DNA of 15,117 bases from Thermoplasmata archaeon (GCA_020348445.1 CP070751.1:1240808-1255924); one strand, 5' to 3'. Counted from the stretch's first letter, positions 1 to 15,117 are shown. Notes: generated by a model not told the origin, from the sequence alone. Made by a program: numbers and translations.

Positions 1-5
1 TAGAA

Positions 6-1574
6 TTGGTCAACCTGCTTAATGAAGCTAAAAACGAATCTAATCATCTGAATGAAGTGGATGTCTCGTCAGAGATCTACAAAGATCTATCCCACATGGT
101 TGGGAAGGAGCGTGTTAGTGAAAGCAATCTTGACCGCCTCTTATACAGCCACGATTTAGCCCCCCTGCCAAAGGAGATGTCTCTCGCATTCAAAACCATT
201 CCTGACATAGTTGTCAAGCCACGTGACGCCATAGATGTCTCTAGAATCATGAAGTATGCGGTTGAAAATGATATTCCTGTTATACCAAGAGGTGGAGCAA
301 CATGGGCATTTGGGGGAGCAGTTCCCGCTTTTGGCGGCATTGTTCTAGATATTGGAAGTATGCAAGAGATCCTTGATGTAAATAAAGAAAATTTATTCGT
401 GACAGTAGAACCTGGGATTAACTGGAAGAAACTATACGACACTCTGTTGAGCAAAGATCTTCTAATAGGGGCATATCCCAGCAGTGCACCTGGAGCTAGT
501 GTAGGTGGCTGGGTGAATACGGGTGGTGTTGGAGTAGGATCCTATAAATATGGGGGAATAGATCAGTTGATTCGGTCTTTGGAAGTTGTCTTATCGGATG
601 GTACAATTATCACGACGGGATGTAAGAACGTATTAAATAATTCATCTGGATATAACCTAACTGACTTGTTTATAGGCTCTGAGGGTACACTTGGGATTAT
701 TACAAAAGTTACCCTGAAGGTTTTTCCAGCCCCTGAAGAGATCCGTCCTACATCATTTGTCTTTCGCGATCTAGAAGAGGCGGGGGAAGCGATTCATGCT
801 TTGACGCGGACTAACATCACTCCTTACCACATTGCCTTTCTTGATGGAGCACACTACGATTTATTGCGTGAACTAGATAAAGATTCCCCAAAGATTGGGG
901 CTATGGTTAACATCACCTTTAGTGGAGACACCAGGATTATTGATATTCAGGATAAAACTACAGAAAAGATCATGGCAGAATATGGTGGGAAAAAAACAAC
1001 CAAAGAGTTCGCAGATCATGAATGGGATGAGCGATTCTTCGAGTCTAAGGCACGCCGCCTTGGACCAGGCTTAATTGTTGGAGAAAGCTTCTGTCCGCTA
1101 TCAAAAATTGTCGATATGAGTAAAAGATCACAAGGTGTATTGAAAAAATTGAAGATGAAAGGTGCAGTAGTCGGTACCGTCGCCGATCCGAATACGGCGT
1201 TATTCATGACCTATGCCATTTCAAATGAACATAAGCTTATAAAGAACATGGCTTCCATGGCGCTAGTGAAGAAACTAGCAGATGAAGCATTCAAAGTAGG
1301 TGGAAGACCAGGAGGTTTTGGACTCCTTTTTAGTGGAAATCTAAAAAAGATACATGGAAAAGGAGTTTTTGTGATGGATGATATTAAATCTGCCCTCGAT
1401 CCCCATTATATCATGAACCCTGGAAAATTGATTGAGAGTACAACCCGTTTCGGCATCCCGATCCCAGGTTTTGCCATGGCCGCTGGTATGAATATACTGG
1501 CATTCATGAAGCGAATGATGCCTGCGGACAAAATCGGAATGAAAAACCATGGAACAAAAAAGAAAAATGAATGA
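6..1574 (+). CDS. FAD-binding oxidoreductase of the VAO/PCMH (GlcD / D-lactate dehydrogenase-like) family
   Basis: 522 aa. N-terminal FAD_binding_4 signatures: PDIVVKP, VIPRGGATWAFGG, VTVEPGI, YPSSAPGASVGGW, DLFIGSEGTLGIITKVTLK; C-terminal LDPHYIMNPGK. Start is TTG at 6, but the frame is open back to the window edge, so the true start could lie upstream. Confidence 0.9.
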   Translation: MVNLLNEAKNESNHLNEVDVSSEIYKDLSHMVGKERVSESNLDRLLYSHDLAPLPKEMSLAFKTIPDIVVKPRDAIDVSRIMKYAVENDIPVIPRGGATWAFGGAVPAFGGIVLDIGSMQEILDVNKENLFVTVEPGINWKKLYDTLLSKDLLIGAYPSSAPGASVGGWVNTGGVGVGSYKYGGIDQLIRSLEVVLSDGTIITTGCKNVLNNSSGYNLTDLFIGSEGTLGIITKVTLKVFPAPEEIRPTSFVFRDLEEAGEAIHALTRTNITPYHIAFLDGAHYDLLRELDKDSPKIGAMVNITFSGDTRIIDIQDKTTEKIMAEYGGKKTTKEFADHEWDERFFESKARRLGPGLIVGESFCPLSKIVDMSKRSQGVLKKLKMKGAVVGTVADPNTALFMTYAISNEHKLIKNMASMALVKKLADEAFKVGGRPGGFGLLFSGNLKKIHGKGVFVMDDIKSALDPHYIMNPGKLIESTTRFGIPIPGFAMAAGMNILAFMKRMMPADKIGMKNHGTKKKNE

Positions 1575-2850
1575 AACAAACCTCATACAAAAAGAACCGA
1601 AGCCAAATCTAGTGCGAAACAAGCCACCCCATCTAGATGACATCTATGCATGTCTACAATGTGGTTATTGTAATTCCGTTTGCCCTATATATCGTGAAAC
1701 TGGATGGGAATCCCTTACTCCACGGGGAAAAGTATTCCTTTTAAAGCACCTCATCGGCAAAGATAGTTTTTTTGATAAAATACTGGGAAAGAAGATTACA
1801 GATTATCTTACAGGCAGAGGCCAGATATCTCTTAATGAGGCCATGACAAAGATATATACATGCACACTCTGTAGTCGCTGTGAAACAATTTGTCATGTAG
1901 ATATTGATTTTCATGAATACTGGGAAGAGATTCGAAAGTGGATGGTTGAGAATGGCATCAAGCCACCACCGAATACTATTGACATGTACAACTACATTGC
2001 CAATGAGGAATATAAAAACCCTTTTATGGAACCATTACCTAAACGAGACGAATGGTATCGTGACGATTACCAACTTCCTGAAACCGCAGATATCATCTAT
2101 TTCATAGGCTGTATGACCTCATACCACGAATATCAGTTGCTTTTGAACACATTAAAGGTCTTTTCAAGTTCAGGGTTAGATTTCACTACACTTGGAACCG
2201 ACGAGATGTGCTGTGGTGCGATCAACACATTGTCAGGTCAATGGGATAATTTCAAAAATATCGCTGAATATAATGTAGGGCAGATTGAAAAACGAGGCGC
2301 GACACAGGTAGTTACAGGATGTCCAGGCTGTTACCGTGCTTTCAAGAAATACCGTAAATTTGCAAAATGCAATTTTAAACTTCTTCACACCACTGAGGTG
2401 ATAGCAGAACTCATAGAAGGAGAAAAACTTAAATTTACAAAAGAATTTAAGGAAAAAAATCTGCCGATTGTGTATCACGATCCTTGTGAGCTTGGACGTG
2501 TTTCCGACTACGAAGGCAAAGGCATTTTCGAAGCGCCCCGTTATATTCTGAAAAACATTCCTGGTATCGATAACATCCTTGAATTTCCAAATAATCGAAT
2601 GGATGGTATTTGCTGTGGCGGTGGTGGAGGATTGAAAGCGCTTAACTATGATCTGACCATAGATATTACCCTCAGAAGGATTGATGAAGCCATCGAGCTT
2701 GGAGCAAATACAATAGTTTCTGCCTGCCCGAATTGCAAAGCCCAGATTGGTAATGGCGTTGAGATGAAAAAGGAACAAATGATAGATAGTGAAGAAAAAT
2801 TCAAAATGAAGGTGATGGACGTCCTTGATATTGCTGCTAAATCCCTCTGA
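1567..2850 (+). CDS. GlcF/HdrD-like (Fe-S)-binding protein: 2x[4Fe-4S] ferredoxin domain plus two CCG domains
   Basis: CLQCGYCNSVCP and CTLCSRCETICH; CCG motifs YFIGC, EMCCG, TGCPGC, YHDPCELGR, ICCGGGGG, SACPNC; GlcF-like ESLTPRGK. ATG 1567 overlaps the upstream TGA by 8 nt (ATGAATGA), the same geometry as hdrC/hdrB. ATG 1549 is an alternative start. Confidence 0.9.
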   Translation: MNETNLIQKEPKPNLVRNKPPHLDDIYACLQCGYCNSVCPIYRETGWESLTPRGKVFLLKHLIGKDSFFDKILGKKITDYLTGRGQISLNEAMTKIYTCTLCSRCETICHVDIDFHEYWEEIRKWMVENGIKPPPNTIDMYNYIANEEYKNPFMEPLPKRDEWYRDDYQLPETADIIYFIGCMTSYHEYQLLLNTLKVFSSSGLDFTTLGTDEMCCGAINTLSGQWDNFKNIAEYNVGQIEKRGATQVVTGCPGCYRAFKKYRKFAKCNFKLLHTTEVIAELIEGEKLKFTKEFKEKNLPIVYHDPCELGRVSDYEGKGIFEAPRYILKNIPGIDNILEFPNNRMDGICCGGGGGLKALNYDLTIDITLRRIDEAIELGANTIVSACPNCKAQIGNGVEMKKEQMIDSEEKFKMKVMDVLDIAAKSL

Positions 2851-2881: not shown

Positions 2882-3856
2882 ATGAGTGTTATTGATGCCA
2901 TACAGGCTTCATTTCAAACATTTCGCCGTTATTTCAAGCAGATGGCGCCGCTGTTCTGGGGCGTCTCAATCCTACCCTATTATATGGGGTGGTCTCTTGC
3001 TTCTAACAAGATTTATCCAACATATGTAGCACGAATTTTATTGCTTCCTGATCCGGCACCTGCACAGAATATGTTTTTGGAGCTGTTTATATTTTTAGGT
3101 GGGATTATTGCAATAGGTCCCCTCTTAGGTGGTGCAACAATCCTCTACAATGATTTTTTTGACAGAGGAATAGATAAACCCAGCAGGAGGAAGAAACACC
3201 TCCCATTGCTGAAAGGAATGCTAAAACCGAGATCTATATATCGATTATCAATAGCCCTATTCAGCCTTGCGTTTCTCCTGGCACTCTTTATTTCAATCTG
3301 GTTTGCTCTGCTCGTATTAGCGTGTATAATCCTTTCTATTATATATTCCTCTCCACCATTAAGGCTGAAGGAGCACCCTGGGTTTGACCTTTTAACAAAT
3401 GCTATAGCGAGTGGGATAATATGCACCATGGCCGGCTGGATTATTATTCGGCCAGTTCTTGAGTTCCCAATATTGTGGGGCATTGTCTCTTTCTTTGGTG
3501 TGGGAGCAATATATTTGCCAACGACAATCATCGATTTTGAACCAGATGTAAAAAAAGGAGTAAAAACGATTGCTACATATCTGGGAAAACGAAGAGCATT
3601 CTATTTAGGATGGAGCTTTGTTGTCCTTGCTAACAGCACTATTATATTGATGGGCCTTCTTAATTATATCATTCCTCCTAGATTTTTACTGTTTGTCTGG
3701 CCAATAATGATCGCTGAAATCTTATCATATTGGTACTATCTTAGGAAACTCGATTTCAAGGGGGGTTATTATGCGATTTTGGTGTTCTCTCTCTTAGTCG
3801 CTTTTGGAACTGGTTTAATTCTGTTTTATAATGCTGGCTTGCTAATAATTCCTTAA
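2882..3856 (+). CDS. UbiA-superfamily prenyltransferase, membrane protein (LyeJ/CrtEb/chlorophyll-synthase-like YSxPPxRLK subgroup)
   Basis: 324 aa with multiple hydrophobic helices. Asp-rich motif 1 YNDFFDRGID (3146-3175), IIYSSPPLRLKEHPGFD, motif 2 DFEPDVKKGVKTIA. AAGGA ribosome-binding site upstream. Confidence 0.88.
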   Translation: MSVIDAIQASFQTFRRYFKQMAPLFWGVSILPYYMGWSLASNKIYPTYVARILLLPDPAPAQNMFLELFIFLGGIIAIGPLLGGATILYNDFFDRGIDKPSRRKKHLPLLKGMLKPRSIYRLSIALFSLAFLLALFISIWFALLVLACIILSIIYSSPPLRLKEHPGFDLLTNAIASGIICTMAGWIIIRPVLEFPILWGIVSFFGVGAIYLPTTIIDFEPDVKKGVKTIATYLGKRRAFYLGWSFVVLANSTIILMGLLNYIIPPRFLLFVWPIMIAEILSYWYYLRKLDFKGGYYAILVFSLLVAFGTGLILFYNAGLLIIP

Positions 3857-4158: not shown

Positions 4159-5034
4159 ATGGGTAAAATCCAAAAGAAACTCGTTGCCTACATCGAATTA
4201 TTAAGACCAGGATGGTGGCCTGCTTGCTTTTTTATTGGTTTAACACCTGGAATATTGGTAATATATTTGAACAGTGGCTCTTTAGGTGAATTTATTCAAT
4301 TGAAAACTGTTGCATGGGCATTTGCCTACTGGGCATCAATCGTTGGTATTTATGCATTTAATGATCTAGTAGGCATAGAAGAGGATGCAGTTGTTAATCC
4401 TAAACGCCCGCTACCATCGGGTAGACTTACTAAAAAAGCTGTTTTAATTTTTTCGTTAATTTTACTAACGATTGGATTGGGTATATGGTGGTTCACCTTT
4501 AAAAATCCCTTGAGTTCCCTTATCCAATTGACCTGTATAGGTCTCATCGCAATCTACTCAGCTATGTATAAAAATAACTTACTCCTTGGCTTGGGAGCAG
4601 GCCTCATCCCTGTTGGTATATGGATCGCCTTTGCTCCTTTTAGTCTAGTCACAGTCGCCCTCTTTTTGTTACTATTTTTCTGGGAATTAACATTAGATGT
4701 CCCAGAAAATATTCTACACTTTGAGGGAGATGTCAAGATTCATCCACAGACGTTTGCTACGCTGTTGGGCCAGGAAAAATTTGCAAAAATCGGCCTTATA
4801 TTCGCCCTACTTACAGTTGCTGCTGTCCTATGGCTATTTTTCCTTTTTGATATGAGTTATATCTATCTGTTCTTTGCCGTAATTGGCTCCATAACTCTAC
4901 TTTATAGCCAGTTATCTATACGAAAAAGCATTGTTCCTGTACATCTCGGACGTTCACTAGGCCTTGTCATGTTTTCAATATTCATGATTAATATAGGAAT
5001 AATTACTTATACGATTGCTCAGTCATACCTATAG
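4159..5034 (+). CDS. UbiA-superfamily prenyltransferase (DGGGP-synthase/UbiA-like) with non-canonical Asp-rich motifs
   Basis: 291 aa with about 8-9 TM segments. ELLRP near the N-terminus, NDLVGIEEDAVVNPKRPLPSGR, and EGD..T second motif. GGGGG ribosome-binding site upstream of the ATG. Confidence 0.85.
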   Translation: MGKIQKKLVAYIELLRPGWWPACFFIGLTPGILVIYLNSGSLGEFIQLKTVAWAFAYWASIVGIYAFNDLVGIEEDAVVNPKRPLPSGRLTKKAVLIFSLILLTIGLGIWWFTFKNPLSSLIQLTCIGLIAIYSAMYKNNLLLGLGAGLIPVGIWIAFAPFSLVTVALFLLLFFWELTLDVPENILHFEGDVKIHPQTFATLLGQEKFAKIGLIFALLTVAAVLWLFFLFDMSYIYLFFAVIGSITLLYSQLSIRKSIVPVHLGRSLGLVMFSIFMINIGIITYTIAQSYL

Positions 5035-5232: not shown

Positions 5233-6234
5233 ATGAAGTTGTTTAATCTTGGCGAATTGAACTGGAGGCAAACTCAATTAATTTACCATGCACTCGCTTA
5301 TAAGAACATAGAGAGTTTGGTGTTACATTCCTCTAGTGATAGATATATGTGTGTTGGCCTTCACCAAAATCCACGGGATGAGCTAGACATTGAATACTGC
5401 AACGAGAACAACATCGGAATATTTCGGAGAGAGATCGGCGGGGGAGCAGTACTATTAGACAACAACCAGGTATTCTACCACCTTATTATACATCGAAACC
5501 ACCCAAAAGTACCATACGCCCCTGAGAGCTTCTTCAGGAGATTTCTTCAGCCAGTTATACAGGTATATTATGAGCTAGGGATATCAGCAGAATATCGTCC
5601 ACTTTGCGATCTTGTTGTGAGAGAGAAAAAGATATCAGGAAATGGTGGCGGGGAGATCGGAGAGTGTAAGGTTCTGGGAGGGAGCATTTTGTTAGATTTT
5701 GATTATGAACGCATGGCCCGAGCAATGTATTTGACAGATGGCCTAAAACAGAGGTTCCTCGAGTTGATGCAGAACAATCTAACCACAGTTCAGAAGGAAC
5801 TTGGAGTTATTCCTTTAAAAGAGGAGATTTACTCAATCCTGGCCACAAAGTTCGCAGATTTTCTAGGACCGATGACTGATGGAAGAATAGACGTAGAAAT
5901 AACCAAGAAAATGATGGAATTAGACAAGCAATATTCCTCTGACACATGGTTGTATCAAAGAGGAACTAAACAAATTTGGCGTGAGATCAAGGTACGCGAA
6001 GGAGTTCTTTTGCTTCATAAAGTGTTCAATACCCAAAAAGACTCTGGATGGGTTACTTGTGAGATTGAAGAGAACAGAGTCAAAAAGGTTACATTTTCCA
6101 ATGCTTTTCCACTATCTCATACTGATCAGCAGGAAATAGAGAATAGACTGGTTGGCATGGAATACGATGGAGATAAGTTACTATACAGAATTATTGAGAT
6201 GATAAAAGCCAATGGGGGTGTTATTGTTGCTTGA
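5233..6234 (+). CDS. lplA: Lipoate-protein ligase A family protein (BPL/LplA/LipB catalytic domain plus C-terminal domain)
   Basis: FRREIGGGAVLLD, KKISGNG and GGSILLDFD motifs, and an LplA-like C-terminal domain of about 80 aa. AAGGAG ribosome-binding site about 9 nt upstream. Confidence 0.9.
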   Translation: MKLFNLGELNWRQTQLIYHALAYKNIESLVLHSSSDRYMCVGLHQNPRDELDIEYCNENNIGIFRREIGGGAVLLDNNQVFYHLIIHRNHPKVPYAPESFFRRFLQPVIQVYYELGISAEYRPLCDLVVREKKISGNGGGEIGECKVLGGSILLDFDYERMARAMYLTDGLKQRFLELMQNNLTTVQKELGVIPLKEEIYSILATKFADFLGPMTDGRIDVEITKKMMELDKQYSSDTWLYQRGTKQIWREIKVREGVLLLHKVFNTQKDSGWVTCEIEENRVKKVTFSNAFPLSHTDQQEIENRLVGMEYDGDKLLYRIIEMIKANGGVIVA

Positions 6235-6658
6235 AGTAAAAGGGATGAAGTTTCCATTAGATAGAAAGTATTATACTAAGGAGGGAGCTCATATTTGGTT
6301 GAAGCCAGAGGGCGATCTTATAAAGATCGGGATGGATGCATTTGCCGCTGAGATGGCAGGGTCTCTTAACTTTCTCAATGTGAGTAAAAGTCGAGTAAAA
6401 AGTGGAGAAGTGATTGGGAGCTTCGAGTCAGCTAAGTTTGTGAGCAGATTCTACTCTCCCATCAGCGGGGAGATTATTTCTATTAACGATCAGGTTCTAA
6501 ATAACCCCCGAAAGATCAACGACGACCCATACAATTCATGGATTGTGGCGATGAAGCCTGACAACAATGAAGACGGAAGCGAATACATTATAGAAGGGAA
6601 GGATGAGATATTTAACTGGATATCTGAAGAGATTAAAAGGATGGAAGTTGATATTTAA
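6227..6658 (+). CDS. gcvH: Glycine cleavage H-like lipoyl carrier protein (GcvH/LbpA-like)
   Basis: YYTKEGAHIW, IKIGMDAFA, FESAKFVSRFYSPISGEIISIN (lipoyl Lys codon at 6434-6436), INDDPYNSWIV. Probable start is TTG 6227: GGGGGTG SD at 6214-6220, 8-nt overlap with the lplA stop, and N-terminus MLEVKGMKFP. The symbol marks the family only; no gcvP/T/L is present in the window. Confidence 0.92.
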   Translation: MLEVKGMKFPLDRKYYTKEGAHIWLKPEGDLIKIGMDAFAAEMAGSLNFLNVSKSRVKSGEVIGSFESAKFVSRFYSPISGEIISINDQVLNNPRKINDDPYNSWIVAMKPDNNEDGSEYIIEGKDEIFNWISEEIKRMEVDI

Positions 6659-6929
6659 ACAAGAGAGCCAAGAGTGTGTAAAAATTAGCCCGCTAAAACT
6701 ATGGACCTTTTAGTTTTTTCAATGGTGTTTGATCGAGGAGAATGGCTCAAGGTCTTAAACCTCTTCCTCATCTGTGAAGACGGTTGCAAGGCGAGTTGTG
6801 GAGACTGAGATCTCTCAAAATCCTGTGATCCCAAAGAAAAGACCTTCATTTTGTTGGACGGGGTGATTTCTCATTGACTGATTTCTTTGAGAGAGCCAAT
6901 TCAGGATATTACATACATCTTACAGGATA

Positions 6930-6943
6930 GAAAACTTTAAATA
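6930..6943 (+). promoter_or_regulatory. Archaeal BRE + TATA box candidate (GAAAAC TTTAAATA)
   Basis: Purine-rich GAAAA immediately 5' of TTTAAATA (6936-6943), in the gap upstream of hdrC and followed by a 14-bp near-palindrome. Confidence 0.5.
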
Positions 6944-7009
6944 CACATCTTGTACAATATATTATGTTATAATTATTACAAATTAGAAATCATTACAAAA
7001 TTGGTTGGA

Positions 7010-7174
7010 ATGTTTGAAAAACATGAAAAACTGTTAGAAAAAAATCCCTCACTTATAAAAAACAAAAAGAGGCCTAAAAAACATCGTGCAATCTGGGGAG
7101 GCATTAATAACATTGGACTTTTTATAACAAATGAGACTGCAGATAATCTAAAATACAGGTTTCAAAAAGGTTAA
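7010..7174 (+). CDS. Possible small basic protein (54 aa) upstream of hdrC
   Basis: ATG 7010 lies downstream of the TATA candidate; sequence MFEKHEKLLEKNP...RFQKG. No family recognised and no strong SD. Confidence 0.25.
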   Translation: MFEKHEKLLEKNPSLIKNKKRPKKHRAIWGGINNIGLFITNETADNLKYRFQKG

Positions 7175-7330
7175 TCTATGATTTTCTTTTTGCAGAAATT
7201 ATTAAATAAGGATTGCTTAATCACCCCCCATATAATAATATGGAAAATCGTCATATACTCCACCTGAATCGATTTATACTGGGGGAGAATTGTCAGCCAA
7301 CTGCCCACAGTACCTTTAAGAGATGAAAGA

Positions 7331-7867
7331 ATGACTAAAAAAGCATTATCTAGAGAAAAACCTATACTGATGGAGGAGTTAGATACTGGCTTTAAATTCG
7401 AAGTCACTGAAGAACCTGGAGGGGAGAATATCAAACGCTGTTTTGCATGTGGCACCTGTACTGTCGTCTGCCCGGTCTTTTCCGTGAACGATCAATACAA
7501 CCCACGTAAAATAATACGGATGATTTTATTTGGTTTGAAAGAGGAGGTTCTCAAGAGCAATTTCATTTGGCTCTGCTCTGGCTGTTATAGCTGTTACGAG
7601 CTATGTCCAAGGGATGTAAAGATAACACGCTTGATGGCTGCAGTAAGAAACATTGCTGTGAGAGAAGGCCATATACCTAAGCCCATGGAGCTCATTGTTG
7701 GTCTTATTGAAAAATTCGGTAGGATCCTAGAAGTGAGCGAGTTTGAGAACATAGTAAGGTCAAAAAAAGGAATGCCAGAACTAGATCTTACAATACCTGA
7801 ATTAAGGAAAGTTCTAAAAAGAACCAGGATACACGATGTAATAAAAAGTAGTGATATAGATGAATAA
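7331..7867 (+). CDS. hdrC: Heterodisulfide reductase subunit C
   Basis: EEPGGENIKRCFACGTCTVVCP and IWLCSGCYSCYELCPRDVK (2x[4Fe-4S]); YNPRKIIR; 8-nt overlap with hdrB. Confidence 0.95.
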   Translation: MTKKALSREKPILMEELDTGFKFEVTEEPGGENIKRCFACGTCTVVCPVFSVNDQYNPRKIIRMILFGLKEEVLKSNFIWLCSGCYSCYELCPRDVKITRLMAAVRNIAVREGHIPKPMELIVGLIEKFGRILEVSEFENIVRSKKGMPELDLTIPELRKVLKRTRIHDVIKSSDIDE

Positions 7868-8768
7868 GTCAGAATACGCGCTATTCCTAGGCTGCACCGT
7901 CTCAGTTAAAGGATTGAACTACGAGCTTTCTGCAAGAAAGGTTGCTGACAGAATAGGAATTAAGTTTGTGGATATACCTGAGTTTTCATGTTGTGGTTTT
8001 CCTCTTGGAGGTATTCATCACAGTTCTGCAGTAACGATTGCAGCTCGAAATCTGGCTCTTGCTGAGGCTCAAGGTCTAAATATCATTGCACTCTGCAGTG
8101 CCTGCACGGGGCATATGACAGAAGTGGAGAAGCTTTTTGCTAATGGGGCAAATGCAAAGGATTTGAAACGTATCAATGCATCATTGAAAGATTTAGGGTA
8201 TCAGTACAATGGTGGTGTCAAGGTCAGGCATTTCGCCCGGGTGCTTTATGAAGAAATTGGTGTTAATAAGTTAAGGAAATTAATAACAGATCCTTTGACG
8301 GGTCTGAAGATTGCTCCACATTATGGTTGTCACTATATTAAGCCTTCTGAGATTTTTGATGGTTTTGATGACCCAATACATCCGCAGAGCCTTGATAAAC
8401 TTATAGAGATAACAGGTGCAACTCCGGTCCAATATAGAGATAAACTTCAATGTTGTGGTGGCGGTATCCTTGCCATCGATGAGGAAACGCCTGTCAAAAT
8501 GGTAAAGCAAAAACTAGATCACATCAAAGAGGCAAATGTTGATGCTATGATTCTTGTGTGCCCTTTCTGTAACATCATGTACGATGAGTTTCAACCTACA
8601 GTGGAATCCACATTCGATGTTGAATACAGTATCCCTGTTCTATATTATCCCCAGCTTTTAGGTCTGGCGATGGGGTTGGATCCAAAAAAAGATCTAGCTG
8701 TAAAGCAGAACCAAGTGAAGGTAACGCCGTTGTTGGAAAAAATCGAAGGTTTAAGGGGTGGCAAATGA
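7860..8768 (+). CDS. hdrB: Heterodisulfide reductase subunit B
   Basis: Two CCG domains with all 10 Cys and the adjacent His: LFLGC, FSCCG, LCSAC, PHYGCHYIKPS, LQCCGGG, VCPFC. Confidence 0.95.
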   Translation: MNKSEYALFLGCTVSVKGLNYELSARKVADRIGIKFVDIPEFSCCGFPLGGIHHSSAVTIAARNLALAEAQGLNIIALCSACTGHMTEVEKLFANGANAKDLKRINASLKDLGYQYNGGVKVRHFARVLYEEIGVNKLRKLITDPLTGLKIAPHYGCHYIKPSEIFDGFDDPIHPQSLDKLIEITGATPVQYRDKLQCCGGGILAIDEETPVKMVKQKLDHIKEANVDAMILVCPFCNIMYDEFQPTVESTFDVEYSIPVLYYPQLLGLAMGLDPKKDLAVKQNQVKVTPLLEKIEGLRGGK

Positions 8769-11700
8769 ACAATAAGACTAAAAAGGTTGGCTCAGTTTTA
8801 GTCGTAGGGGGTGGTATTGGAGGAATGCAGTCTGCTTTGGACCTTGCAGAAGCAGGTTTTAGGGTCTACCTACTAGAGAGAACCCCAAGCATTGGAGGTA
8901 CAATGGCCCAACTGGACAAGACGTTTCCAACCAATGATTGTGCAATGTGCATTCTTGCTCCGAAACTGGTCTATACTGGTCGACATGAGAATATCGAGAT
9001 TATTACAAACGCTGAAATTACAGATATTGCTGGAGAGGCCGGGAATTTCCATGTCATGATTAAGAAGCATCCACGATTTGTTGATATAGATAAATGTAAC
9101 AGCTGTGGTGATTGTACAGAACATTGTCCAGTTAGTTTAGTATCTGATTTTGAGGAAGGACTTGCGTTGCGTAAGGCTATTTATCAGCAGTTTCCACAAG
9201 CGATTCCAAACATCTTTAATATTGTTAAAAATGAGGGCGTATCTCCTTGTGAATTGGCGTGTCCTGCGGGATTGAATGCTCAGGCATTTGTTGCACTCGC
9301 ATCGCAGGAAAAATTTGCAGAAGCATATGATCTTATAAGGGAGATTATTCCATTACCTGGATCACTTGGGCGGATTTGTTACCATCCATGTGAGTCTGAT
9401 TGTAATCGAAAGGATATTGACGAGCCGATTTCAATTTGCAGAATTCGGCGATTTATCTCTGATTATATTTATGATCATCCTAAGGTGCGTACTGATTATC
9501 ATAAGTACCGGAATGAAAAACTTAGAGAAAAAGAGGTTGTTAAAGTAGAGATTAAAAGAGGTAAGAACCGGAAAGTTGCTATTGTTGGTGCAGGTCCAGC
9601 AGGGCTTACAGCAGCATCTGATCTTGCTGGTATTGGCTATCAACCGACTATTTTTGAAGCTGAAAAACACAATGGTGGGATGCTTTATTATGGCATTCCA
9701 GAGCATCGGTTGCCTAAAGAGTATTTGAGAAAAGAAATAAATTTATTATGTAAAGAGAACAAAATTGACATTAAGAACAATATACGATTTGGTAAAGATT
9801 TTAATATTGATGATCTACGAAAACAAGGGTTTAAAGCAATTTTTATTGCGATTGGAGCACATAAGAGCCGATTGATACATGTTGACTGTTTCGAAGGTGC
9901 AGAATCCCGTATATTACAAGGAGTTGAATATTTGAAAAAACTGAACAGCGGTAAGATTCCTCAAGATTACTTTAAGGGTAAAAAAATCTTGGTTATCGGT
10001 GGTGGCAACGTCGCGATGGATTCTGCGCGTAGTGCAAAGCGACTTGGTGGCGACGTAACTATTGTATATCGACGATCATTGAAGGAGATGCCAGCACATA
10101 AAGAGGAAATACAACAGGCGAAGGAAGAAGGTATTACGTTTAAGTTTTTGACGAATCCACAACAGTTACTAAGGAGAGGAAAAGATACATGTCTGCAGTG
10201 TGTTAAGATGAAACTTGGGACTCCTGATGAATCGGGACGTAGGAAACCTCTTGTGATAAAAGATTCTGAATTTGATATTAACTGCGATTACGTTATTTTT
10301 GCGATAGGGCAAGAAGTTGATGTCTCATCTTTGAAGAAAAACAAGATTAAATTGAATAAATCAGAGTTAATTGAGGTTGATCCAGTTACACTACAGACAT
10401 CGCAAAAAGATGTCTTTGCTGGAGGCGATGCCGTAAGCGGTCCTGCATCTGCTGTAGAGGCAATAGCTGCAGGTCATGATGCTGCAATATCGATTGATCG
10501 ATATCTAAATAAAGAAGATATGAGAAAAGGAAGAGGGGAAAAAGAGTGTAAAAAGGCAGAAATTCCTCCTGAAGCGCCACGTTTTCAGTTGAAACGTGAA
10601 AGTCCATCTTATCTCCCAATAAAGCAACGTATGAAATCTTTTAACGAGGTGGACCAAGGTATTTCTAAAGACAGGGTAGTGCGAGAGGCACAACGATGTC
10701 TGAATTGTGAAGGGTGCTGTGAGTGTCTGCAGTGTGTATTGCACTGTGAAAGTGACGCTATTGATCAAAGTATGAAAGAGACGACGGAGACGCTTGATGT
10801 TGGCGCTATCATTGTTGCATCAGGATTTGATTTATTCGATCCCTCCCAAAAGGAGGAATACGGACATGGAAAATATGAAAACGTAGTAACCAGTAAAGAA
10901 CTTGAGAGATATCTTAGTGCTTCGGGCCCTACTGCTGGACACGTCATTAGACGTTCAGATAGCAAAGAGCCGAAGAATATCGCATTTATACAATGTGTTG
11001 GCTCCCGGGACGAGAACTCGAACGAATATTGTTCAAGTGTGTGTTGCATGTATGCAATAAAGCAGGCAATTATAGCCCAAGAACATACTTCTGGCTTGAA
11101 AACACATTTGTTCTTTATGGATATTAGGGCATTTGGTAAAGAGTTTGATGACTATTATATTAGAGCAGAAAAGGAGCATGGAGTTAATTTCACCCGATGT
11201 AGAATACCAAGCATAGAAGAGGATCCAGAAACAAAAGATTTGATTATAACCTACCTTGAAAACGAAGAAAGAAAACAAAAAGTATTTGACATGGTGGTTC
11301 TCTCGTGTGCACTGGAGCCATTGAAGTCCTCAAAAGAATTAAGCGACAAACTTGGTATCGATTTAAATGAATATGGTTTCTTTAAGACCAATCTTTTTTC
11401 ACCATTGGAAACCAGCAAACCAGGGATCTATGTCACTGGTACATCTTCGGGACCAAAAGATATTCCCATGACTGTAACTGATGCTAGTGGCGCTGCTGCA
11501 AAGGCATCATGTATTATTTCTTCTGAGAGGCATTCGTTAGAAACCTTTAAGGAGTATCCTCCTGAGAGGGATACAGCTAGTGAGGTACCAAGAATAGGTG
11601 TATTTGTATGCCGCTGTGGGATTAACATAGGTGCTTATGTTGATGTATCGTCTGTAGTTAAATATGCTAAGACATTACCAAATGTTGTACATACGGAGGA

Positions 11701-13237
11701 ATTTATTCACTCATGCTCCCATGATACTCAGATTAGGATCATTGATATAATTAAAAAACACAAGCTGAATCGTGTCGTTGTTTCAGCATGTACACCACGA
11801 ACCCATGAACAACTGTTCCAGAGTACCCTCAGAGAAGCGGGATTGAATCCACACCTTTTTGAAATGACCAATATACGGGAACAATGCTCATGGGTACATA
11901 TGAAAGAACCAGAAAAAGCAACAGAGAAAGCAAAGGATCTCATCAAGATGGCTGTTAGCAAGGCTCAACTAGACCAACCTTTAACAAGAGAAAAGCTTCC
12001 TGTGATTCCAAAAGGACTGGTCATTGGAGGTGGATTGTCTGGTATGACTGCTGCTTTGGAATTGGCTGAACAAGGCTTTGAAACATATTTGATTGAACGA
12101 GAAAATGATTTAGGTGGCTCCTTACGAAAAACATATTTCCTGCTAGGTAACGAGGATCCTCAAGAATTATTACAATCTCTTAAGAAAAAGGTGAATAATA
12201 ATAAAAGGATACGTGTTTTCACCAATGCTGAGATCAAAGACGTCCATGGACATATTGGTGACTTCACGACTAGGATTTCAATCGATGGAAAAGAGGAAAA
12301 AGAACTTAAGCATGGAATTATAATAGTGGCTACTGGTGCTAAGGAGTACGAACCTATAGAATACCTATATGGACATGACGATCGAGTACTAACCAAGTGG
12401 GAACTCGAAGAAAAACTAGTTAAAGGAGGTTTTTCAGCTAAAAATGTAGTTATGATTCAGTGCGTCGGCTGCCGAAACGAAGAACGAACATACTGCAGTA
12501 GAGTCTGTTGTGGAGATGCGATTAAGAATGCATTGAAGATTAAAGAAATAAGTCCAGAAACTAATATCTACATCTTATACAAGGACATACGAACCTATGG
12601 ATTCAGGGAAAAATATTATAAAGAGGCTGCTGAGAAGGGTGTGCTATTTATTAGATACGATGATGAAACTAAGCCCATTGTCACCAATAAGGATGGATTA
12701 AAGGTATCGATAATGGAGCCAATACTGAGAAGTCTAATTATACTTAAACCTGATATGATAGTTCTTAGTAATGCAATGCTTCCACAAGATGGCGCTAAAG
12801 CGCTTTCACAAATACTTAAGGTTCATACTACCAAGGATGGATTCTTCTTGGAGGCTCATATGAAGCTGCGGCCTGTGGATTTTGTAAGGGATGGCGTATT
12901 TCTATGTGGAAAAGCACATTCACCTAAATATATAGAAGAATGTATTGTACAAGCAAGTGCGGCTGCTGCAAGAGCAATTACTATTTTATCTAAGGATAAA
13001 ATCGAATCAGAAGCAGTTGTATCAGTAGTTATTGAAGATCTTTGCAGTGGCTGTGGTTTTTGCATAGAAGCCTGTCCATATTTAGCGATAGAGCTTAAGG
13101 ATGGAAAGGCCCAAGTGGATGCTGCTTCATGCAAAGGATGCGGTAGCTGTGCATCGACATGTCCATCTGGAGCAATTGAGCAAAAAGGATTCAAAAAAGA
13201 ACAAATCATATCAATGATAGATGCTGCAGCAAAATAA
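8765..13237 (+). CDS. hdrA: Large HdrA-family flavoprotein (HdrL type): split HdrA module with inserted GltD/NfnB-like NAD(P)H module, second HdrA module and C-terminal ferredoxin
   Basis: N-terminal VLVVGGGIGG and QLDKTFPTNDCAMCI. GltD-like PCELACP, GRICYHPCESDC, GAGPAG, GGGNVAMD, VYRR (about 9242-10720). QCVGSRD/YCSSVCC, GPKDIP. Second module VFVCRCG, VSACTPRTHE, NIREQCSWVH, GGGLSG, QCVGCR/YCSRVCC, SPKYIEE. Terminal 2x CxxCxxCxxxCP. ATGA overlap with hdrB and AGGGGTG SD. Confidence 0.95.
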   Translation: MNNKTKKVGSVLVVGGGIGGMQSALDLAEAGFRVYLLERTPSIGGTMAQLDKTFPTNDCAMCILAPKLVYTGRHENIEIITNAEITDIAGEAGNFHVMIKKHPRFVDIDKCNSCGDCTEHCPVSLVSDFEEGLALRKAIYQQFPQAIPNIFNIVKNEGVSPCELACPAGLNAQAFVALASQEKFAEAYDLIREIIPLPGSLGRICYHPCESDCNRKDIDEPISICRIRRFISDYIYDHPKVRTDYHKYRNEKLREKEVVKVEIKRGKNRKVAIVGAGPAGLTAASDLAGIGYQPTIFEAEKHNGGMLYYGIPEHRLPKEYLRKEINLLCKENKIDIKNNIRFGKDFNIDDLRKQGFKAIFIAIGAHKSRLIHVDCFEGAESRILQGVEYLKKLNSGKIPQDYFKGKKILVIGGGNVAMDSARSAKRLGGDVTIVYRRSLKEMPAHKEEIQQAKEEGITFKFLTNPQQLLRRGKDTCLQCVKMKLGTPDESGRRKPLVIKDSEFDINCDYVIFAIGQEVDVSSLKKNKIKLNKSELIEVDPVTLQTSQKDVFAGGDAVSGPASAVEAIAAGHDAAISIDRYLNKEDMRKGRGEKECKKAEIPPEAPRFQLKRESPSYLPIKQRMKSFNEVDQGISKDRVVREAQRCLNCEGCCECLQCVLHCESDAIDQSMKETTETLDVGAIIVASGFDLFDPSQKEEYGHGKYENVVTSKELERYLSASGPTAGHVIRRSDSKEPKNIAFIQCVGSRDENSNEYCSSVCCMYAIKQAIIAQEHTSGLKTHLFFMDIRAFGKEFDDYYIRAEKEHGVNFTRCRIPSIEEDPETKDLIITYLENEERKQKVFDMVVLSCALEPLKSSKELSDKLGIDLNEYGFFKTNLFSPLETSKPGIYVTGTSSGPKDIPMTVTDASGAAAKASCIISSERHSLETFKEYPPERDTASEVPRIGVFVCRCGINIGAYVDVSSVVKYAKTLPNVVHTEEFIHSCSHDTQIRIIDIIKKHKLNRVVVSACTPRTHEQLFQSTLREAGLNPHLFEMTNIREQCSWVHMKEPEKATEKAKDLIKMAVSKAQLDQPLTREKLPVIPKGLVIGGGLSGMTAALELAEQGFETYLIERENDLGGSLRKTYFLLGNEDPQELLQSLKKKVNNNKRIRVFTNAEIKDVHGHIGDFTTRISIDGKEEKELKHGIIIVATGAKEYEPIEYLYGHDDRVLTKWELEEKLVKGGFSAKNVVMIQCVGCRNEERTYCSRVCCGDAIKNALKIKEISPETNIYILYKDIRTYGFREKYYKEAAEKGVLFIRYDDETKPIVTNKDGLKVSIMEPILRSLIILKPDMIVLSNAMLPQDGAKALSQILKVHTTKDGFFLEAHMKLRPVDFVRDGVFLCGKAHSPKYIEECIVQASAAAARAITILSKDKIESEAVVSVVIEDLCSGCGFCIEACPYLAIELKDGKAQVDAASCKGCGSCASTCPSGAIEQKGFKKEQIISMIDAAAK

Positions 13238-13301: not shown

Positions 13302-13736
13302 CTAAGTGACCTTCTTGAACTGCATTACACTCTCTATAGGAAACGAGACTGCATTTGTTAGAGGACAAGTTGTGCTCGAAACGTCAAAACATTGTTCTAT
13401 CTTATTTTTATATTTATTTTCTGCCCAAACGGTAAGAGTAATCTTTACTCTTGACAGCTTTTTTTTCTTTTCGTAATTATCCGCATAGGCTTTAATGTCA
13501 ACAATACAATCTTCGACTATTACTCGTGCCTTCACTGCTATCCAAATAAAGGTTGATAGGAGGCATGCACCAATACCTGAGATAAAAACTTCCATAGGGG
13601 CTGGAGCCATATTTGTTCCAAAATCGGATTTTGGTTTGTCAGTTTCTACCTCAAATCCTCTTATGATACTCCGTGTCTTAAGTCCGCCTTCCCAAAAAAC
13701 CTTGGCTTTTGCTTTAATTTCCTGAATATTTTTCAT
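13302..13736 (-). CDS. OsmC/Ohr-fold family protein (YhfA-like)
   Basis: FEVETDKP...APAPMEVFISGIGACLLSTF (first Cys) and TTCPLTNAV (second Cys); 144 aa from ATG 13736. The GTG at 13796 would add 20 residues with no family resemblance. Confidence 0.88.
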   Translation of the reverse strand: MKNIQEIKAKAKVFWEGGLKTRSIIRGFEVETDKPKSDFGTNMAPAPMEVFISGIGACLLSTFIWIAVKARVIVEDCIVDIKAYADNYEKKKKLSRVKITLTVWAENKYKNKIEQCFDVSSTTCPLTNAVSFPIESVMQFKKVT

Positions 13737-13756
13737 AATAACGCTATTGTCACTTG

Positions 13757-13764
13757 ATTTATAA
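13757..13764 (-). promoter_or_regulatory. TATA-box candidate (TTATAAAT) for a possibly leaderless osmC-like transcript
   Basis: Located 21-28 nt upstream of ATG 13736; no SD before that ATG; BRE not obvious. Confidence 0.35.
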
Positions 13765-13812
13765 GGAAATCGGACCGTAATACCATTGTTAAACACGTTT
13801 TTCTTTTATTTT

Positions 13813-15117
13813 CTATTTCTTTAATCTGTCTATTTCCTTTAGTAACTCAACAGCTCGTTTTTTATAAGCTGCTCTTAAACGTTTGTAATCCTCTTTGTTT
13901 ATGATCCCATCCTCGAACTCGTGTTCAACTCGTTTAATAGCCGATAACACCTTCTTTTTCTGCTCTTCTATCTCCTTAATCCTCTTTTTTTCAAGAAGTT
14001 TTTCCCTTCGTTTTTCTGGAGAAGTATCTCGTTTTTGTAAGGTGCTCTCTTCTTTGAAAAAATCTATTTTCTTTAACAGTAAAATAACCATAATCAAAAT
14101 TACTATGATAACTAATAGCCATGTAATGTAAGGGTTTGACTGATCATCTGCAGTTTTTTCCAATTTCATACTCATCGTTGTATAGGAATTTGGTATAACA
14201 TCTTCGTTTTTAGCAAAAAACCAGTATCTCCCGTAGTCCTCTAACCAAAAAAGTTCGTCATGAACCATTTCCAAGTCGTCACTGATTTCCAGTTCATTTA
14301 TGGTTAATAAATAGACCTCATATGTTACCTTTTTTGTCTCGTAAAGATATTGTTTTGTGAACAAGCCTTTAGTTTCGTTTTCATTCATACCAATCTGTGT
14401 AGTATATCTTACATATATTGATGCAATATTCGATGGAGCTGTGATTTTAAGGGTTAAGTTCGCATATTCTTGTGGGGGGAGTGAAACGTTATTTAACCTT
14501 CTAGTATTGTTCCATATTTCAGCGGTCCATCCTTGCGGGAGATCACTTACATTAAAACCTATTAATTCGTTATCAGTACCATTATTTAAAAGGGTTATAT
14601 TCTCAATTGTTGTGATGTAGAAAGGCATATATTGGTCTATCACTGGGAGCATTCCAATATCAAGTTTTTCGGATGTTAAATGAACTCCTATGCCCAGGAA
14701 GCTTTCTTTTTCTCTAGGGATGGATGTACCACCAATAGTTGCATTCAAATGTAGTGTGTCATTATTCAGGGAAGCATTTGTAGTTGAAAATGCAGTGATG
14801 GAAATTGATTCTCTTTGTCCATAATAAGAGAGCCTGTTTTCATCGGGAAACGGGTAGCCAACATAGAGATTGTCATCATCGGTTTTATTTAAATAGAAAC
14901 ATTCCATGTATCCCCCCGCTTTATATCTACATGCCATATTGGGGGTGTAGTTACAACAGTCTGCTGCAATAATACTATTATCTAGTATCCATATAAGGAG
15001 TGAATCGTTGAATATAACTTCACCTGTGTTATTAATGTAGAAATATTCGTTGACTTCTAATGTTTTTAGATCATCCTGTTGAAAGACGTATATCCAATGT
15101 CTGTCGATTTTGATAGG
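13813..15117 (-). CDS. Exported, C-terminally membrane-anchored glycoprotein-like protein with a cytoplasmic helical tail (5'-truncated by the window)
   Basis: I translated upstream of ATG 14937: the frame stays open to base 15117 (PIKIDRHWIYVFQQDDLKTLEVNEYFYINNTGE...DCCNYTPNMACRY). 14 N-X-S/T sequons in 434 aa, a NEW3/Ig-like LPQGW..LPPQEYANLTLKITAP segment, TM helix YITWLLVIIVILIMVILLL, and a charged tail with GIINKEDY. Confidence 0.85.
   Translation of the reverse strand, partial: PIKIDRHWIYVFQQDDLKTLEVNEYFYINNTGEVIFNDSLLIWILDNSIIAADCCNYTPNMACRYKAGGYMECFYLNKTDDDNLYVGYPFPDENRLSYYGQRESISITAFSTTNASLNNDTLHLNATIGGTSIPREKESFLGIGVHLTSEKLDIGMLPVIDQYMPFYITTIENITLLNNGTDNELIGFNVSDLPQGWTAEIWNNTRRLNNVSLPPQEYANLTLKITAPSNIASIYVRYTTQIGMNENETKGLFTKQYLYETKKVTYEVYLLTINELEISDDLEMVHDELFWLEDYGRYWFFAKNEDVIPNSYTTMSMKLEKTADDQSNPYITWLLVIIVILIMVILLLKKIDFFKEESTLQKRDTSPEKRREKLLEKKRIKEIEEQKKKVLSAIKRVEHEFEDGIINKEDYKRLRAAYKKRAVELLKEIDRLKK

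Follow-up and report, generated by a model that had tools for sequence, protein, structure and literature searches.

A methanogen-type HdrCB-HdrL gene set next to lipoate genes in a Thermoplasmata archaeon: a candidate link between lipoyl carriers and HdrB at a junction of separately conserved modules

The stretch of DNA analyzed here, called the window, comprises 15,117 nucleotides (CP070751.1:1240808-1255924) of the single 5.16-Mb contig of an uncultured, non-methanogenic Thermoplasmata archaeon of sediment (genome G000), and the question it raises is whether a lipoylated protein is a partner of the Hdr proteins encoded beside it. On the plus strand, the window carries, in this order, genes for a GlcD-like oxidase, a CCG-domain protein and two UbiA proteins, the ligase gene lplA, a gene for a GcvH-like lipoyl carrier and, after a gap of 672 bp (6659-7330), hdrC, hdrB and hdrL. 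The minus strand carries osmC and an open reading frame (ORF) without family match. The central features are the following, with positions counted from the first nucleotide of the window:

5233-6234, plus strand: lplA, Lpl(AB)-type lipoate:protein ligase (LplA-B_cat, E 1.7e-30)
6212-6658, plus strand: GcvH-like lipoyl carrier of 148 amino acids (aa), belonging to clade A defined below (GCV_H, E 9.6e-25)
6668-6859, plus strand: remnant of the 5' end of a lipS2-like gene for a radical S-adenosylmethionine (SAM) lipoyl synthase, ~64 codons with two in-frame stops
7190-7330, plus strand: conserved hdrC leader, identified by alignment, with a B recognition element (BRE)/TATA-like block GAGAAAtTATTAAATA and a GAGgTGA ribosome-binding site
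7331-7867, plus strand: hdrC, 2x[4Fe-4S] protein (TIGR03290, 114.7 bits; Fer4_8)
7860-8768, plus strand: hdrB, methanogen type, both CCG motifs intact (TIGR03288, 282 bits)
8765-13237, plus strand: hdrL, 1490 aa, tandem HdrA with an inserted NfnB/GltD-like module (domain searches)

HdrB aligns over its full length with the solved methanogen HdrB (PDB 8rvu/5odc) at ~240 bits and is thus of methanogen type, as the first-pass annotation of this locus had held, and not of the type found in the sulfur-oxidizing Hdr-like (sHdr) system. Its cysteines C12, C44, C45, C79, C82, C157, C198, C199, C234 and C237 are conserved in 54 sequences, and both copies of the motif CX31-40CCX33-36CXXC are present. 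HdrL is built from two HdrA-like halves, one split between aa 1-150 and aa 645-925, the other spanning aa 935-1490 and ending in a 2x[4Fe-4S] domain. The first half is interrupted at aa 152-661 by an NfnB/GltD-like FAD-NAD(P)H-2x[4Fe-4S] module (Fer4_20 and Pyr_redox_2 at aa 160-570; 267 bits to NfnB, 5jca_L). The protein scores 667 bits against methanogen HdrA (5odc_A) versus 136 bits against sHdrA (6tjr), and no MvhD/FlpD domain was found in HdrL or in the other ORFs of the window. All three proteins stay below the curated equivalog cut-offs (HdrB 282 against 345, HdrC 115 against 160, HdrA2 1001 against 1100).

Family searches of the window ORFs (Pfam, NCBIfam) bore out the earlier observation that gcvP/T/L, 2-oxoacid dehydrogenase E2/E3, mcr and mvhD are missing from the window, and an Rfam search of the window returned no RNA family. 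For the genome as a whole, absence calls refer to a one-contig assembly with a CheckM completeness of 81.7%. McrA and ComA were not found in it, so that CoM-S-S-CoB is not an expected substrate of this HdrB; neither was DsrC or a 2-oxoacid dehydrogenase E2. The lpdA and gcvPT functions lacking in the window do have counterparts elsewhere in the genome, namely two Lpd-like genes, gcvT and a canonical gcvH-gcvPA-gcvPB cluster, with gcvH at 4.33 Mb and a ligase gene ~3 kb off (4.32-4.33 Mb). Five H-family genes are present, i.e., the canonical one, that of the window and three further paralogues. The GcvH-like gene can accordingly be called an orphan inside the window, but not genome-wide.

Both lipoate proteins of the window retain their functional signatures. 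The ligase has the lysine motif KK[IV]SG and the C-terminal accessory domain, and the lipoyl-lysine of the carrier (K75, motif E-S-x-K) is invariant across 63 homologues. Ratios of nonsynonymous to synonymous substitution rates (dN/dS) against orthologues were 0.17-0.21 for lplA and 0.12-0.18 for the gcvH-like gene, within a range of 0.11-0.21 covering these two genes, hdrB and the CCG gene; lplA and gcvH-like are under purifying selection. With 85 bits, the carrier falls below the NCBIfam GcvH cut-off of 117, and it has no gcvP/gcvT linkage. In a maximum-likelihood tree of 56 H-family proteins, two clades separate with 100/99 support: clade A contains the H-like protein of the window and a paralogue of 167 aa, all its members adjoining LplA/LipS2 and missing the GcvH cut-off, and clade B contains canonical GcvH together with proteins that adjoin hdrCB or GlcD/CCG genes and that pass this cut-off (130-140 bits). 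The H-like protein is therefore not a canonical GcvH, as already supposed from the window sequence.

Comparison with other loci confirmed that lipoate genes and Hdr genes of this type recur together in several independent arrangements. The nearest paralogues of the LplA, H-like, HdrC, HdrB, GlcD-like and CCG proteins of the window all lie in one region of the same genome, at 4.56-4.60 Mb. There, a single strand carries LplA, GcvH (167 aa), LipS2-like, LplA-DUF116, two unassigned genes, HdrC, HdrB, HdrC, HdrB, HdrL (1492 aa), MvhD and further HdrA-like genes; the region also holds two more H-proteins, each adjoining a GlcD/CCG pair. This paralogous cluster is kept in the congeners G003 and G004 (G numbers denote genomes and L numbers loci compared, and a percentage in brackets after an L locus is the identity of its HdrB to that of the window), and all four non-canonical H-paralogues of the genome lie <5 kb from a CCG-domain gene. 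In the congener G001, GlcD, CCG, GcvH, HdrC, HdrB, HdrA and MvhD form one array with a divergent OsmC gene. The whole layout of the window is repeated in the metagenomic locus L073 (79%), and both L073 and L084 (74%) have an extra Lpl(AB) ligase gene between hdrB and hdrL. More broadly, ~15 of the 41 loci that represent species have hdrCB flanked directly by an H-protein gene; six or more arrangements occur, in four phyla (Thermoplasmatota, Bathyarchaeia, Desulfobacterota and others). These loci divide into ten of Desulfobacterota type, three GcvH-HdrC-HdrB-HdrL arrays, one from Bathyarchaeia and one from another member of the Thermoplasmata.

Three side observations concern these arrays. The Desulfobacterota array (L107, L109, L110, L112, L113, L115-L118 and L120) consists of HdrA-like genes, HdrC, HdrB, an H-protein passing the GcvH cut-off and an 860-aa GlcD-GlcF(CCG) fusion. 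In L073, the place of the gap is taken by four opposite-strand genes resembling those of group-4 [NiFe]-hydrogenases (L073:6401-8824; Fer4, large subunit, 30-kDa and Oxidored_q6 subunits). Finally, a fusion of the LplA catalytic domain to DUF116, of 513-543 aa, occurs in L019:4860-6401 (G000 4580859-4582400), L062-L065, L068, L069 and L071; since it is constant in the cluster of LplA, GcvH and LipS2, DUF116 probably acts in lipoate assembly or transfer.

Judged from gene content and comparison, the window joins three separately conserved modules: 1) a GlcD-like flavoenzyme, a GlcF/HdrD-like CCG Fe-S protein and two UbiA genes; 2) a partly decayed archaeal cluster for lipoate carrier and assembly, with Lpl(AB), the clade-A carrier and a dead lipS2; and 3) a presumably independently promoted hdrC-hdrB-hdrL set, followed by the convergent osmC. 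In the working model, the ligase would lipoylate the H-like protein, and the dithiol/disulfide of this carrier would be turned over at non-cubane clusters, either those of HdrB within HdrCB-HdrL or those of the GlcF-like protein, or both. Electrons would pass between NAD(P)H, at the NfnB-like module of HdrL, possibly ferredoxin, at the HdrA flavins, and sinks such as OsmC. Observed are the gene content, the intact motifs, purifying selection, the repeated co-location of lipoate genes with Hdr of this type and the lack of CoM, DsrC and E2 candidates; the model adds, by inference, that the proteins meet, which way the electrons run and which of the four non-canonical H-proteins would serve this Hdr. 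Such a functional link between a lipoyl carrier and HdrB or CCG enzymes is put forward tentatively, its probability falling somewhat short of even. In its general form, that lipoyl carriers partner HdrB/CCG enzymes, it has broad comparative support, and protein-bound lipoate is a candidate for the substrate of HdrB.

Several lines of evidence weigh against this link as far as the window itself is concerned. First, the gap between the gcvH-like gene and hdrC has its own history. Its first ~200 nt are filled by the lipS2 remnant, which matches L063 by blastn (73.5% over 238 nt, E 2e-33) and the N-termini of radical SAM proteins of relatives by blastx (E 2e-14), and in which one stop replaces the third Cys of CxxxCxxC; lipS2 is the gene that follows gcvH in relatives. 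The only sign of a LipS-type lipoyl synthase adjoining the ligase of the window is this remnant, the intact LipS2-like gene (230 bits) being in the paralogous locus. The last ~140 nt of the gap have counterparts upstream of hdrC in L083, L072, L073 and L084, with 79-86% identity for L083 and L072. In the five-way alignment, the BRE/TATA-like block is invariant ~140 nt before the start codon and the ribosome-binding site is conserved, and these elements are also present at loci with no lipoate gene upstream. Owing to the remnant and the conserved leader, the contact of lipoate and Hdr genes in the window is a scar of deletion or rearrangement, and hdrCB-hdrL looks like a transcription unit of its own with a promoter-like element. 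The single-operon reading was rejected on these grounds: the genes, strand and order given in the first-pass annotation for lplA and gcvH-like upstream of hdrC hold, but the 672-bp gap separates the two sets.

Second, the linkage is not conserved in the nearest Hdr relatives, as L083 (88%), L072 (82%) and L087 have no lplA-gcvH upstream of hdrCB-hdrL. Third, seen from the H-like protein, Hdr genes are not the usual neighbors. Its family comprises >120 clusters at 48-83% identity, in Thermoplasmatota and one Asgard metagenome-assembled genome. None of nine loci outside the genus, picked solely by sequence length, had HdrA, HdrB or HdrC within 10 kb, so that the synteny expected by the first-pass annotation was not recovered from this side. 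Constant neighbors in all nine were LplA, LipS2-like, LplA-DUF116, a LipT-like flavoprotein and a second H-protein upstream, together with two UbiA genes and the GlcD/CCG pair. The three closest H-like loci (76-83%) share the upstream order of the window, which is then followed by a lipoate-assembly or HpaB-like gene and not by hdr, and in G024 and G035 the clade-A cluster has OsmC nearby with the nearest HdrB ~25 kb off. The H-like protein of the window thus seems tied first to its own maturation genes, a pattern like that of LbpA in sHdr systems. Fourth, where H-proteins directly adjoin hdrCB in other lineages, they are of clade B and not of clade A, so that outside the window the best case for Hdr adjacency is made by a clade to which the window's own protein does not belong. 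Finally, the H-like family occurs in 8 of 401 genomes of the class, 6 of which also have a close HdrB orthologue, and in only three or four genera; because kin are not independent, locus counts overstate the evidence. A position close to some Hdr gene could also arise by chance at a rate that should not be neglected, given ~30 HdrA-like ORFs in the genome. The narrow form of the proposal, in which the neighboring H-like protein is what this HdrB acts on, rests on a secondary, non-conserved adjacency. The interpretation given in the first-pass annotation, that HdrB reduces the lipoyl disulfide of the neighboring H-like protein, therefore keeps its methanogen-type HdrB, its non-canonical H protein and a recurrent lipoate-Hdr link, and loses the operon contact, the conserved linkage and, as discussed below, bifurcation.

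The same observations nourish an alternative in which the two gene sets are neighbors by rearrangement only and HdrCB-HdrL uses another disulfide. LplA and the clade-A protein would then work with OsmC, with the GlcD/GlcF-like CCG enzyme or with both; alternatively, lipoate would be assembled on the H-like protein as a scaffold and relayed from it. The Hdr-free surroundings of clade A in 9/9 outside loci, made of lipoate-assembly genes, GlcD/CCG and two UbiA genes, fit this explanation, and so do the lipS2 remnant with the separate hdrC leader and the closest Hdr relatives lacking lplA-gcvH. In Bacillus, lipoate is relayed by LipM, GcvH and LipL, and the two LplA-family genes around the H-protein recall this relay. 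Rearrangement does not, however, account for the Lpl(AB) gene that separates hdrB from hdrL in L073 and L084, for the contiguous set of lipoate and Hdr genes that G000, G003 and G004 share, or for the H-proteins beside hdrCB in ~15 of 41 loci. It is a possible explanation, although a doubtful one.

The functional link between carrier and HdrB/CCG proteins has also to be seen with two conserved companions that were absent from the first-pass annotation, the GlcD-like/CCG pair (3-2850) and OsmC. The first of these lies with the UbiA genes at the 5' end of the window:

3-1574, plus strand: GlcD-like FAD-linked oxidase, 2-hydroxyacid dehydrogenase type (FAD_binding_4 and FAD-oxidase_C), with its 5' end at the window edge
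1549-2850, plus strand: GlcF/HdrD-like Fe-S protein with 2x[4Fe-4S] and two CCG domains (CCG, E 4.4e-29; Fer4_8)
2882-3856 and 4159-5034, plus strand: two UbiA-family prenyltransferase genes (PF01040)

The GlcD-like oxidase scores 208 bits against TIGR00387, under the cut-off, and its gene is kept as upstream partner in L062, L063, L066, L067, L073, L074 and L079. The GlcF-like protein is the most constant CCG neighbor of the clade-A H-like gene. The UbiA pair keeps its place between the CCG gene and lplA in at least eight loci (L062, L063, L066-L068, L071, L073, L074, L079), which suggests that a prenylated membrane compound belongs to the GlcD/CCG-lipoate module.

The second companion and its neighbor lie at the 3' end, on the opposite strand:

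13302-13796, minus strand: OsmC-family peroxiredoxin, convergent with hdrL (PF02566, E 1.6e-11)
13813-14937, minus strand: protein with one predicted transmembrane helix and a lysine/glutamate-rich helical tail (hydropathy; no Pfam/NCBIfam match)

Both cysteines at the catalytic positions of OsmC (GACLLST, TTCPLT) align with Ta0195. The gene is convergent after hdrL in five loci (window, L072, L073, L083 and L084), and in the four loci other than the window the ORF with the transmembrane helix also lies beside, upstream of and co-oriented with it. In G001 and at 4,557,891 of G000, OsmC is transcribed divergently from GlcD/CCG arrays that have an H-protein gene close by, and two of the three OsmC genes of the genome lie in lipoyl/CCG/Hdr regions. 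Of six loci with OsmC homologues in a sample of the phylum, three have CCG or Hdr genes as neighbors and three do not. OsmC and Ohr proteins are described in PMC5384416 (citing Cussiol 2010) as lipoyl-dependent peroxidases reduced by lipoyl groups, and in Hyphomicrobium a GcvH-like protein (GcvH_1) has been proposed as the donor of OsmC (preprint 10.64898/2026.10.01.755906). These systems, including Trichomonas OsmC with H and L proteins, share with the window a two-cysteine OsmC near a dedicated GcvH-like protein. They differ in that their lipoate is re-reduced by dihydrolipoamide dehydrogenase, the adjacent candidate here being the Hdr complex, and in that OsmC of the window is on the strand opposite to hdrL and is associated through co-location. 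As a separate observation, EtfB, EtfA(Fer4), a 391-aa CCG protein and OsmC are co-oriented in L128:6311-10601 (G467) and L129 (G522), with OsmC directly after the CCG protein and no Hdr or lipoate gene nearby.

These arrangements could also mean that HdrB or the GlcF-like CCG protein acts directly on the intramolecular disulfide of OsmC, as a peroxide reductase driven by NAD(P)H, with the lipoate genes as bystanders. The five convergent loci, the co-oriented OsmC after the CCG protein in G467 and G522, and the distance of only 4.5 kb between OsmC and an hdrB/hdrA array in G636 are compatible with such a reaction, but OsmC is on the strand opposite to hdrL, half of the sampled homologue loci lack a CCG or Hdr neighbor, and the known OsmC/Ohr reductant is a lipoyl group (PMC5384416). 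Direct reduction is considered improbable.

Among known systems, the window is most reminiscent of the sHdr-LbpA system of sulfur oxidizers, with its sLpl(AB), LipS1, LipS2 and LipT proteins (Cao et al., 2018, PMC6067878; Tanabe et al., 2023, PMC10332631). A non-canonical GcvH-like carrier, an Lpl(AB)-type ligase and a LipS-type gene by hdrB/hdrC/hdrA are common to both. By analogy, Hdr would oxidize sulfane sulfur handed to it by the lipoyl carrier, the part that LbpA plays in sulfur oxidizers, and a dedicated ligase and LipS2 gene beside hdr match this logic (PMC6067878, PMC10332631), as do the two HdrCB pairs of the paralogous locus, sHdr loci having the form hdrC1B1...hdrC2B2. In contrast to sHdrA, which is short (~350 aa) and without ferredoxin domains, HdrL has 1490 aa, is a tandem of methanogen-type HdrA with ferredoxin domains and an NfnB-like NAD(P)H module, and is far closer to 5odc_A than to 6tjr; HdrB and HdrC are likewise of methanogen type, and the window has a single HdrCB pair. 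sHdr is always accompanied by the sulfur transferases DsrE, TusA and rhodanese (PMC11094781), none of which was found by Pfam among the window ORFs; nor was DsrC found in the genome. In addition, lipS2 is dead, the gene sets do not form one operon, and the host is a non-methanogenic sediment archaeon with ~30 HdrA-like ORFs. The sHdr reading, very improbable in our view, was rejected because of the HdrA type and the missing sulfur transferases in the window. Weaker still, a role of the H-like protein as second glycine-cleavage H protein, compatible with its GCV_H fold and lipoyl lysine, was rejected as scarcely credible in view of its score, its separate clade and the canonical gcvH that sits with gcvPA/PB and a ligase gene elsewhere.

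Two further observations concern the genome. In an open frame of 1263 aa (G000:C1:5091617-5093401), two GCV_T (aminomethyltransferase) matches were found; the neighboring ORF (5088853-5091207) is HdrA-like in its N-terminal part. The archaeal small-subunit ribosomal RNA model matched only with its positions 1344-1467 (103 bits, G000:C1:692126-692248); the 3-kb locus at 692 kb yielded no other part of the 16S, the rest of which may be masked, interrupted or misassembled.

Compared with the methanogen MvhAGD-HdrABC complex (5odc, 8rvu), the HdrCB-HdrL proteins have in common the two CCG motifs of HdrB, HdrC and the flavin/Fe-S architecture of HdrA. They differ by the absence of Mcr and comA from the genome and of MvhD and hydrogenase from the window, by the duplicated HdrA with its NAD(P)H module and by scores under the NCBIfam equivalog cut-offs. 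A large HdrA/glutamate-synthase-small-subunit fusion, for which electron intake from NAD(P)H was proposed, has been described as HdrL in Desulfobacterium autotrophicum (Strittmatter et al., 2009, PMC2702500). In that organism, mvhD is found at every HdrL locus, unlike in the window, and lipoate and H-proteins are unmentioned in the paper (PMC2702500). The closest precedent for a carrier comes from Culexarchaeia, for which it was remarked that GcvH, encoded among the Hdr/hydrogenase genes of the Ehe/HdrA2B2C2 cluster, might present the disulfide of HdrB in a non-methanogen (Kohtz et al., 2022, PMC9723716). Phylum and cluster are different, and the paper reports neither a ligase nor OsmC, nor a test by comparison or experiment; no other literature on lplA/hdr or GcvH/Hdr in anaerobes was found. 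The sHdr-LbpA system is thus established and the idea of GcvH as disulfide carrier has been voiced (PMC9723716). What is new is the anatomy of the junction, the two carrier clades with different gene contexts, the ligase inside hdrCB-hdrL and the link to OsmC.

Energetic considerations restrict how the proposed carrier-HdrB/CCG link could operate. Standard potentials are -320 mV for NADPH, ~-290 mV for lipoamide and ~-450 mV for ferredoxin. By these textbook values, the bifurcation of NADPH electrons to ferredoxin and the lipoyl disulfide suggested by the first-pass annotation is unfavorable and was rejected; confurcation or a plain NAD(P)H-lipoyl exchange, without bifurcation, is feasible. 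The idea of the first-pass annotation that Hdr would replace dihydrolipoamide dehydrogenase (Lpd) has to be set against the two Lpd-like genes of the genome. A wider proposal would make lipoate bound to dedicated H-like carriers the general 'heterodisulfide' of methanogen-type HdrB and other CCG enzymes in non-methanogenic anaerobes; in this lineage, NAD(P)H-linked HdrCB-HdrL would replace Lpd, supply reduced carrier to OsmC as organic-hydroperoxide reductase and exchange electrons with 2-hydroxyacid dehydrogenases of GlcD/GlcF type. At present, this generalization is on the unlikely side.

The window is an example of adjacency alone being misleading, as a scar here joins two units that seem to be separately promoted. 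The substrate of HdrB outside methanogens is nonetheless a long-standing question for energy conservation, and it concerns sediment archaea, Asgard archaea, Bathyarchaeia, sulfate reducers and syntrophs. One concrete candidate, which can be expressed and assayed, is a lipoylated protein, and the recurrent OsmC neighbor offers a testable physiological sink.

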